Source of the DNA: a virus
DNA: 64,000 bases
Reading direction: 5' to 3' (one strand)
Virus record (IMG/VR): IMGVR_UViG_3300019927_000008
Location: 2,888 to 66,887 of that record
Shown piece by piece: positions 39,479 to 39,547 of this stretch. Position numbers and translations under genes: made by a program. Position 1 is the first letter of the stretch, and each line of letters begins with the position of its first letter. The notes below the pieces were generated by a model, which had not been told where the DNA came from, searched no databases, and saw only the letters and a program-made list of their open reading frames with translations.

Positions 39479-39547
39479 GCCGTCTCGTGGGCTGACGCCG
39501 GGGAAGCCCCATTTCGGAACCTCCCCAAAAGCGGCCCACGAAACGGC
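39479..39547 (-). other. Bulge-helix-bulge RNA motif in an intercistronic hairpin
   Basis: 14-bp outer stem, 4-bp central helix CGCU/GGCG, 3-nt bulges UUU and UCA each 3' of the helix, inner stem GGGGAG/CUUCCCC. Confidence 0.7.

Follow-up and report, generated by a model that had tools for sequence, protein, structure and literature searches.

Outside tRNA and rRNA, two kinds of mRNA have been cited as substrates of the archaeal splicing endonuclease, the cbf5 pre-mRNA of Crenarchaeota and HVO_1309 of Haloferax (PMC7714728). In Haloferax volcanii, the endonuclease EndA strictly requires a bulge-helix-bulge with flanking helices (hBHBh') and cuts a 46-nt intron out of HVO_1309's 5' UTR both in vivo and in vitro; excised bulge-helix-bulge (BHB) introns are circularized in haloarchaea by EndA and RtcB, and the purpose of the HVO_1309 intron is still unknown (Schwarz et al., 2020; PMC7714728). 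The cbf5 intron lies inside coding sequence, often has a relaxed motif and is cut by a broad-specificity (alpha-beta)2 enzyme (Watanabe, 2002; Yokobori, 2009; PMC2738675). Archaeal pre-16S and pre-23S rRNA have processing stems with long perfect helices on both sides of a strict 3-4-3 motif (bulge of 3 nt, helix of 4 bp, bulge of 3 nt); cutting there frees the inner part, a functional rRNA, in circular form, and the outer strands are joined again. In tRNA introns at position 37/38, nucleotides 32–35 form the helix; the 5' bulge consists of nucleotides 36–37 and the first base of the intron; and the 3' bulge, beside the anticodon stem, of base 38 and the last two intron bases. Full-text literature searches and a survey of archaeal tailed viruses (PMC8651126) did not turn up any description of a BHB element in transcripts of archaeal viruses; the survey mentions viral RtcB only with regard to tRNA repair.

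Here we describe a viral hairpin that has its closest analogue in the HVO_1309 5'-UTR intron, with an architecture that looks more like that of a miniature rRNA processing stem. It lies in the window, the whole 64,000-nt stretch of DNA that was analysed, which is part of a 71.8-kb IMG/VR viral contig from an uncultured salt-lake virus. The contig proteins share 50–60% identity with proteins of the haloarchaeal myoviruses HSTV-2, HRTV-7 and HRTV-5 (Hafunaviridae), and the virus appears to be a Hafunaviridae-like haloarchaeal tailed virus. The hairpin occurs within a 111-nt untranslated spacer, between a stop codon at 39575 and an ATG at 39463, on the strand of all neighbouring genes. An earlier reading made from the letters alone (the sequence-only reading) had given its sequence, coordinates and strand exactly as we found them, and had correctly placed it between cistrons upstream of NTPase and primase genes. 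The features of the locus are:

39575..39967, minus strand, upstream gene, a 130-aa ORF (phrog_13442), with its stop codon 27 nt before the hairpin
39558..39568, minus strand, conserved GCGCGGTAACT motif, 10 nt upstream of the hairpin
39468..39476, minus strand, GACACAACC leader motif, 4 nt upstream of the ATG at 39463, invariant ahead of the NTPase gene in all aligned relatives
38018..39463, minus strand, downstream gene, a 481-aa P-loop NTPase with an invariant TGLSSGGK (phrog_12057), with its ATG 15 nt after the hairpin
36462..37730, minus strand, primase-like gene further downstream in the same unit as the NTPase (phrog_16345 'primase', E = 4.7e-8)
22607, 23392, 28972, 35145, 41201, 41235, 56142 and 63906, minus strand, and 44936, plus strand, TAAGACTYAA sites

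The NTPase gene is followed by a 68-aa ORF, the primase-like gene and a gene for an Mre11-like exonuclease; sequence searches of solved structures with the two downstream proteins gave no useful match. Two in-frame stop codons precede the hairpin, so its excision would join no reading frames and ORF fusion by splicing is ruled out. TAAGACTYAA occurs nine times in the window, where 0.17 copies are expected, and is absent from the hairpin spacer; copies at 41201–41244 and 35145–35154 bracket the block from a 368-aa gene to the exonuclease gene. Taken together, the bracketing copies and the absence from the spacer suggest that the hairpin is most likely internal to a polycistronic transcript of about 6 kb.

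TAAGACTYAA is similar to CTAAAGACTTAGAA, the alpha motif in halovirus HF2's promoter-bearing intergenic repeats (Russ et al., 2021; PMC8707807), and its sites are likely to be transcription-unit starts or regulator sites. HF2 is of the same virus family and its repeats are likewise intergenic regulatory sequence, but they are AT-rich DNA promoters, whereas the hairpin is a GC-rich RNA structure in a motif-free spacer. An HF2-type repeat promoter, which is defined by a AAGACTTA-type alpha motif and an AT-rich TATA box, was rejected for the spacer, where none of the nine TAAGACTYAA sites lies.

The RNAfold MFE and centroid structures of 39547..39479 were both a single rod with a 3-4-3 BHB, as the sequence-only reading had proposed, with an energy of -51.9 kcal/mol (z = -7.3; 0/200 shuffles as stable). 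Along the 5' strand, a 14-bp outer helix is followed by the 4-bp CGCU/GGCG helix, a UUU bulge, an 11-bp inner helix and a GAAAU loop; a UCA bulge sits between the 4-bp helix and the outer helix on the 3' side. The parts are as follows:

39479..39547, minus strand, complete hBHBh' hairpin, 69 nt (identified by the fold, as the best strict BHB in the window and by covariance model)
39547-39534, minus strand, 5' arm of the outer (exon-side) helix h, 14 bp, paired with 39479-39492
39533-39530, minus strand, 5' strand CGCU of the central helix H, 4 bp, paired with GGCG at 39496-39499
39529-39527, minus strand, 5' bulge UUU, 3 nt, unpaired probability 0.71-0.99, predicted cut 39528/39527
39526-39516 and 39510-39500, minus strand, inner (intron-side) helix h', 11 bp
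39515-39511, minus strand, loop GAAAU closing the inner helix
39499-39496, minus strand, 3' strand GGCG of the central helix H
39495-39493, minus strand, 3' bulge UCA, 3 nt, unpaired probability 0.96-1.0, predicted cut 39494/39493
39492-39479, minus strand, 3' arm of the outer helix h
39494..39527, minus strand, predicted intron, 34 nt, assuming a cut after the second base of each bulge

A bulge lies 3' of each strand of the 4-bp helix, which is the arrangement of a tRNA 37/38 intron; polarity and cut sites were derived from tRNA numbering and published definitions (PMC7714728; PMC6379350), with no control substrate. The hairpin satisfies the hBHBh' definition in every respect that can be tested on sequence: the central helix is 4 bp, the 3-nt bulges are staggered on opposite strands, the polarity is right and the flanking helices, at 14 and 11 bp, have the at least two Watson–Crick pairs each that are called for (footnote 3 of PMC7714728). 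In a strict 3-4-3 scan of both strands of the window, the hairpin had 29 flanking base pairs and the next-best site 17, by comparison with 20 for the best of 40 shuffled windows (mean 15.4). Minimal 3-4-3 matches were at chance level (460 observed versus ~361 in shuffles), as were those whose flanking helices both had 6 bp or more (5 observed versus 3.5 expected). At gathering thresholds, Rfam returned nothing at the hairpin, and E values up to 10 gave only a meaningless miRNA match of 21 bits; a tRNA or tRNA-like gene was rejected, there being no ARAGORN or Rfam RF00005 match at the hairpin.

By comparison with the described systems, the viral element is most like HVO_1309: both are haloarchaeal; both place hBHBh' in the untranslated leader of a protein-coding mRNA, where excision alters no ORF; both have a short intron (46 nt there, a predicted 34–46 nt here); and the same enzymes, alpha2 EndA and then a ligase, are predicted to act. 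The HVO_1309 element, however, is a cellular one for which circRNA-seq, in vitro cleavage and endA knock-down provide proof, whereas the viral one is predicted from sequence, is probably intercistronic and has much longer flanking helices. The pre-rRNA stems also have such helices around a strict 3-4-3 motif, and the layout is predicted to be the same, with the inner part released as a circle and the outer strands re-joined; the inner part of the viral element, unlike an rRNA, is a variable hairpin without conserved sequence. Pre-tRNA 37/38 introns have the same geometry and polarity, and after the predicted excision the viral outer stem would, like an anticodon arm, be capped by a 7-nt loop, but the tRNA body is missing and the stem has 14 bp where an anticodon arm has 5. 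The spliced loop, CGCUUUA, would have no U33 and no purine at 37, and anticodon-arm mimicry was rejected for this reason. The cbf5 intron is, like the viral element, in a protein-coding transcript and a substrate (predicted for the virus) of the tRNA splicing endonuclease; the viral motif, by contrast, is strict, in a non-coding spacer and without reading-frame fusion.

Relatives were collected by protein-anchored IMG/VR searches, by degenerate DNA-pattern scans of IMG/VR and JGI metagenomes, and from contigs encoding homologous NTPases. The exact 3-4-3 geometry was present at the same locus in nine further distinct lineage sequences (L004, L006, L007, L015, L016, L022, L021/L025, L059, which is the same as L081-83, and L114). 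Their outer helices are 12–18 bp long and differ in sequence; their inner helices are unrelated (GGGGAGGUUCC, GGGGGUAUCUC, GGGACGGGG, AGAGCAAGGUU, GGAACAAGAU and others); and the loops of the strict forms are 3–17 nt and variable in sequence. The 5' bulge is UUU or UCA and the 3' bulge UCA, UUA, ACC, ACA, AAU or AUA, the latter being 3 nt in every strict relative and in every relative with the 1-4-3 form described below. The G–C pairs beside the bulges are nearly invariant in sequence; in L059 and L114 the bulge-flanking pairs are altered too and the geometry is kept.

Covariation in relatives, which the sequence-only reading had named as a check, supports the fold. When 25 pairs were imposed on an 11-sequence alignment, nine of the sequences being strict, standard pairs occupied 97.1% of cells and 17 of the 25 pairs showed double-sided changes; 0/500 shuffles reached any of five covariation measures, and pairing fell to 39–48% when the 3' partner was slid by 1–3 columns. 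The central helix is 4 bp in 11/11 aligned sequences with 100% of cells paired, its third pair being seen as C–G, G–C, U–A and U–G, and 10 of the 14 outer-helix pairs have double-sided changes across relatives. Covariance model R1 scored the window hairpin at 97.1 bits in the sense direction versus 33.4 bits antisense, and the family model gave 71–98 versus 13–35 bits. The BHB conformer dominates the predicted ensemble in most copies, with most central-helix pairs at a probability of at least 0.9; L004 and L006 have a competing alternative in which two bulge U residues are paired (BHB probability 0.16 and 0.58, respectively). A model search of five whole viral records found the element to be single-copy, and it was the top strict-BHB match in G001 and G002, the two of the five that were also scanned generically; in a generic BHB scan of HSTV-2, HRTV-5, G001 and G002, only the homologous hairpin stood above chance. 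The structure, conservation, strand and position of the hairpin are established.

On a tree of the NTPases, the strict copies fall in one clade (support 100/100) with the exception of L016, whose NTPase is in a different clade next to that of HSTV-2; its leader has therefore probably moved by recombination. A sister clade (L060, L084 and L086; support 94/90) keeps a 1-4-3 form upstream of the NTPase genes (L060:1414-1492, and also in L084 and L086), with the same outer helix, 3-nt 3' bulge and 4-bp helix but a single bulged A on the 5' strand, and with compensatory changes in the inner helix. The strict form of L060 lies 9.5 kcal/mol above the MFE form, and inspection of the L086 sequence showed that no strict form can be drawn. 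The 1-4-3 form should not be fully processed by a strict alpha2 enzyme, and its retention suggests that full intron excision is probably not the hairpin's only role; the clade can be regarded as a half-BHB variant that occurs in nature.

Other leaders are found in more distant relatives. A different hairpin is present in L063/L064, L085, L088, L089 and L115, with a conserved CACUCAUAGGG(UA) motif in the loop of several; the NTPase leader of L116 has no hairpin; and HSTV-2, HRTV-5 and L050 have an unrelated spacer (78 nt in HSTV-2 and HRTV-5) with no BHB element. A structured leader before the NTPase gene is thus general and the BHB is one clade's version of it. A weak model match in HRTV-5 was dismissed as an ordinary hairpin with a 1-nt bulge. 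In L077-L080 an inserted HNH_3 gene abuts or overlaps the NTPase start, and the hairpin position is outside the DNA examined. A blastn search of a phage collection containing the cultured haloviruses with the region found no match, nor did a provirus search of cellular genomes with the DNA pattern; the sole protein match in cellular genomes was the 6-kb viral contig L050 (NZ_JBDNGD010000491.1), which encodes the haloviral NTPase and lacks the hairpin, in a 'Halomonas sp.' MAG, where it is probably a binning error. Intron-less alleles, having the 'spliced' 14-bp stem and 7-nt loop in DNA, were also sought, and all four pattern matches proved unrelated. Among the NTPase-encoding assemblies no transcript-derived contigs were recognizable; the spacer-bearing loci have either the full hairpin or another leader.

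From these observations we infer cleavage, ligation and an effect on expression. The explanation that we favour, and consider probable, is that the hairpin is a canonical hBHBh' substrate of the host EndA in the spacer of a polycistronic mRNA, with a predicted 34-nt intron or at least a cut at the 3' bulge. Haloarchaeal EndA is a homodimer that reads shape and not sequence; the host enzyme would cut both 3-nt bulges, after 39528 and after 39494, and the host ligase RtcB would join the exons and circularize the 34-nt intron. To our knowledge, all Halobacteria carry EndA and an RNA ligase. Searches of the virus for RtcB (PF01139) and EndA (PF01974) found neither, with a Haloferax positive control in both searches, and the host enzymes would therefore have to act. 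The idea of a host splicing endonuclease substrate goes back to the sequence-only reading; it has gained from the strict geometry in nine more lineages, in sense RNA only, and has lost some ground to the 1-4-3 form of the sister clade.

The benefit of splicing is less apparent. After splicing, a 14-bp stem would remain, with CGCUUUA as its 7-nt loop and with GGGCCGCUUU/AGCCCAC as the predicted exon-exon junction. This stem-loop is computed at -27.3 kcal/mol, and the leader would have the same single-stranded GUGACACAACCAAAC before the AUG as the unspliced one, with start-codon accessibility and the 15-nt spacer unchanged. The leader being barely altered, there is no obvious benefit from splicing, and the suggestion that it resets the 5' UTR of the replication genes looks weak; the intron, put earlier at roughly 35 nt, has a predicted length of 34 nt (39527..39494). 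What is invariant in all element-bearing relatives, the 1-4-3 clade included, is the half made up of the outer helix, the 3-nt 3' bulge and the 4-bp helix. As alpha'2 EndA cuts relaxed motifs at the intact bulge only (PMC5829648), this half favours the 3' cut as the conserved event, and by this analogy it may be the cut that matters. A 3' cut would give the replication genes a message with a defined 5'-OH end, 30 nt ahead of the NTPase start codon, and so separate them from the upstream cistrons; the strict clade would add the release of the intron and perhaps re-ligation.

If a viral transcript contains a stable, ribosome-free, canonical BHB, a cell with a shape-reading enzyme should cut it, whether or not cutting is 'intended'. 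A harmful site could be removed by a one-base indel, yet ten lineages (the window and nine others) keep it, which we count in favour of EndA processing. Against it, the bulge-side G–C pairs are more conserved in sequence than a purely shape-reading enzyme would require, more distant relatives have another leader hairpin or none, the BHB has a competing pairing in L004 and L006, and a geometry inherited for another binding partner would look similar. A wider proposal, to which we are attached only tentatively, is that a haloarchaeal tailed-virus lineage recruited host EndA and then RtcB for its replication-gene mRNA, giving a switch that sets the NTPase-primase message's 5' end, stability or translation, together with a small circular RNA, the 1-4-3 clade being a cut-only version.

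The strongest competitor, which we nevertheless regard as rather unlikely, is a structured leader with another job, either an mRNA-stabilizing stem or a site at which a viral or host protein regulates the replication module; the BHB match would then be a coincidence maintained by descent and any cutting by EndA incidental. The near-invariance of the G–C pairs next to the bulges is in keeping with such a role, as are the small change that splicing would make to the leader, the non-BHB form that the sister clade keeps with compensatory changes of its own, the different conserved leader hairpins with the CACUCAUAGGG loop that other clades have at the same place, and the stems directly before GACACAACC in other leaders of the window. 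It does not account readily for the holding of the exact EndA geometry, among many possible bulge sizes, spacings and polarities, in ten lineages in which nearly all else varies, and L059 and L114 change the flanking sequence rather than the geometry. Nor does the hairpin offer the G.A pairs of a kink-turn: both bulges are followed by G–C Watson–Crick pairs and not by tandem sheared G.A pairs, and an L7Ae site was rejected on that basis.

It is much less likely that the hairpin is a small RNA precursor, in which the released inner hairpin, as a stable circular RNA of 34–46 nt, is the point rather than the mRNA. EndA and RtcB do circularize BHB introns in haloarchaea (PMC7714728), and every copy has a long, stable inner helix, but neither this helix nor its loop has conserved sequence and the length varies, with predicted introns of 34–46 nt. 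Moreover, no terminator follows the hairpin and there is no clear promoter of its own, the spacer having no TAAGACTYAA, although the conserved motif at 39558-39568 lies 10 nt upstream. A palindrome acting in DNA, for example as a replication origin, a cruciform or an operator, would suit a long inverted repeat immediately upstream of replication genes but is scarcely credible, as the G–U pairs (5 of 29 in the window hairpin, and often seen as intermediates in the alignment) would not match in DNA or on the opposite strand and, with the model scores of 97 bits sense versus 33 antisense, point to an RNA structure of the coding strand.

If EndA processing of the viral mRNA is correct, then among archaeal viruses the hairpin would be the first BHB intron or processing site, and it would show that viruses exploit the EndA splicing pathway, an archaeal parallel to the unconventional tRNA-ligase-dependent splicing of HAC1/XBP1 mRNA in eukaryotes. 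It would also provide a compact model substrate for which nature supplies about ten sequence variants and, in the 1-4-3 clade, a 'mutant' form, and the function of untranslated BHB introns would become testable by simple Haloferax reporter constructs.

A number of other observations were made on the window and its relatives. The five viral tRNA genes, clustered at 42278-43499 (minus strand), were searched for an intron that could serve as an internal positive control and none of the five has one; ARAGORN made two odd calls, one with a 2-nt anticodon (42485-42557) and one an 86-nt 'Asp(atc)' (43286-43371). In the G002 contig, a second strict 3-4-3 match at 46365..46190 (minus strand), with 8 + 13 flanking bp and a span of 153 nt, is marginally above the best shuffle (20). 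The palindrome CGTTAC-G-GTAACG or GTTACGGGGGTAAC occurs in the same spacer of L006 (2880-2900), L001 (HSTV-2; 2452-2470) and L050 (2300-2315), while the window retains only a half-site, GCGCGGTAACT at 39558-39568; the palindrome may be an operator or a small stem.

The GACACAACC motif recurs in the window at 41129-41137 and 56036-56044 (minus strand) and, with one mismatch, at 28881-28889 (minus strand), there being five exact copies versus about 0.5 expected by chance. It lies 1–7 nt before the start codons of genes that follow promoter-repeat regions, usually directly after a stem; it is invariant ahead of the NTPase gene throughout both alignments and present even in the hairpin-less L116. 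The motif is presumably not complementary to the 16S 3' end, and may be a virus-specific leader or translation signal. The site at 41135-41175, described in the sequence-only reading as a relaxed look-alike, turned out not to be a BHB (7-bp stem, 5-nt 3' bulge, 2-bp helix and 1-nt 5' bulge; z = -1.3) and has in common with the hairpin only the leader design of a stem followed by GACACAACC. Some relatives have endonuclease genes (phrog_4645; Pfam HNH_3) inserted beside the NTPase gene; the insert of G001 (L015:2687-3496) separates the BHB hairpin from the NTPase gene, and both genes have their own GACACAACC leader.
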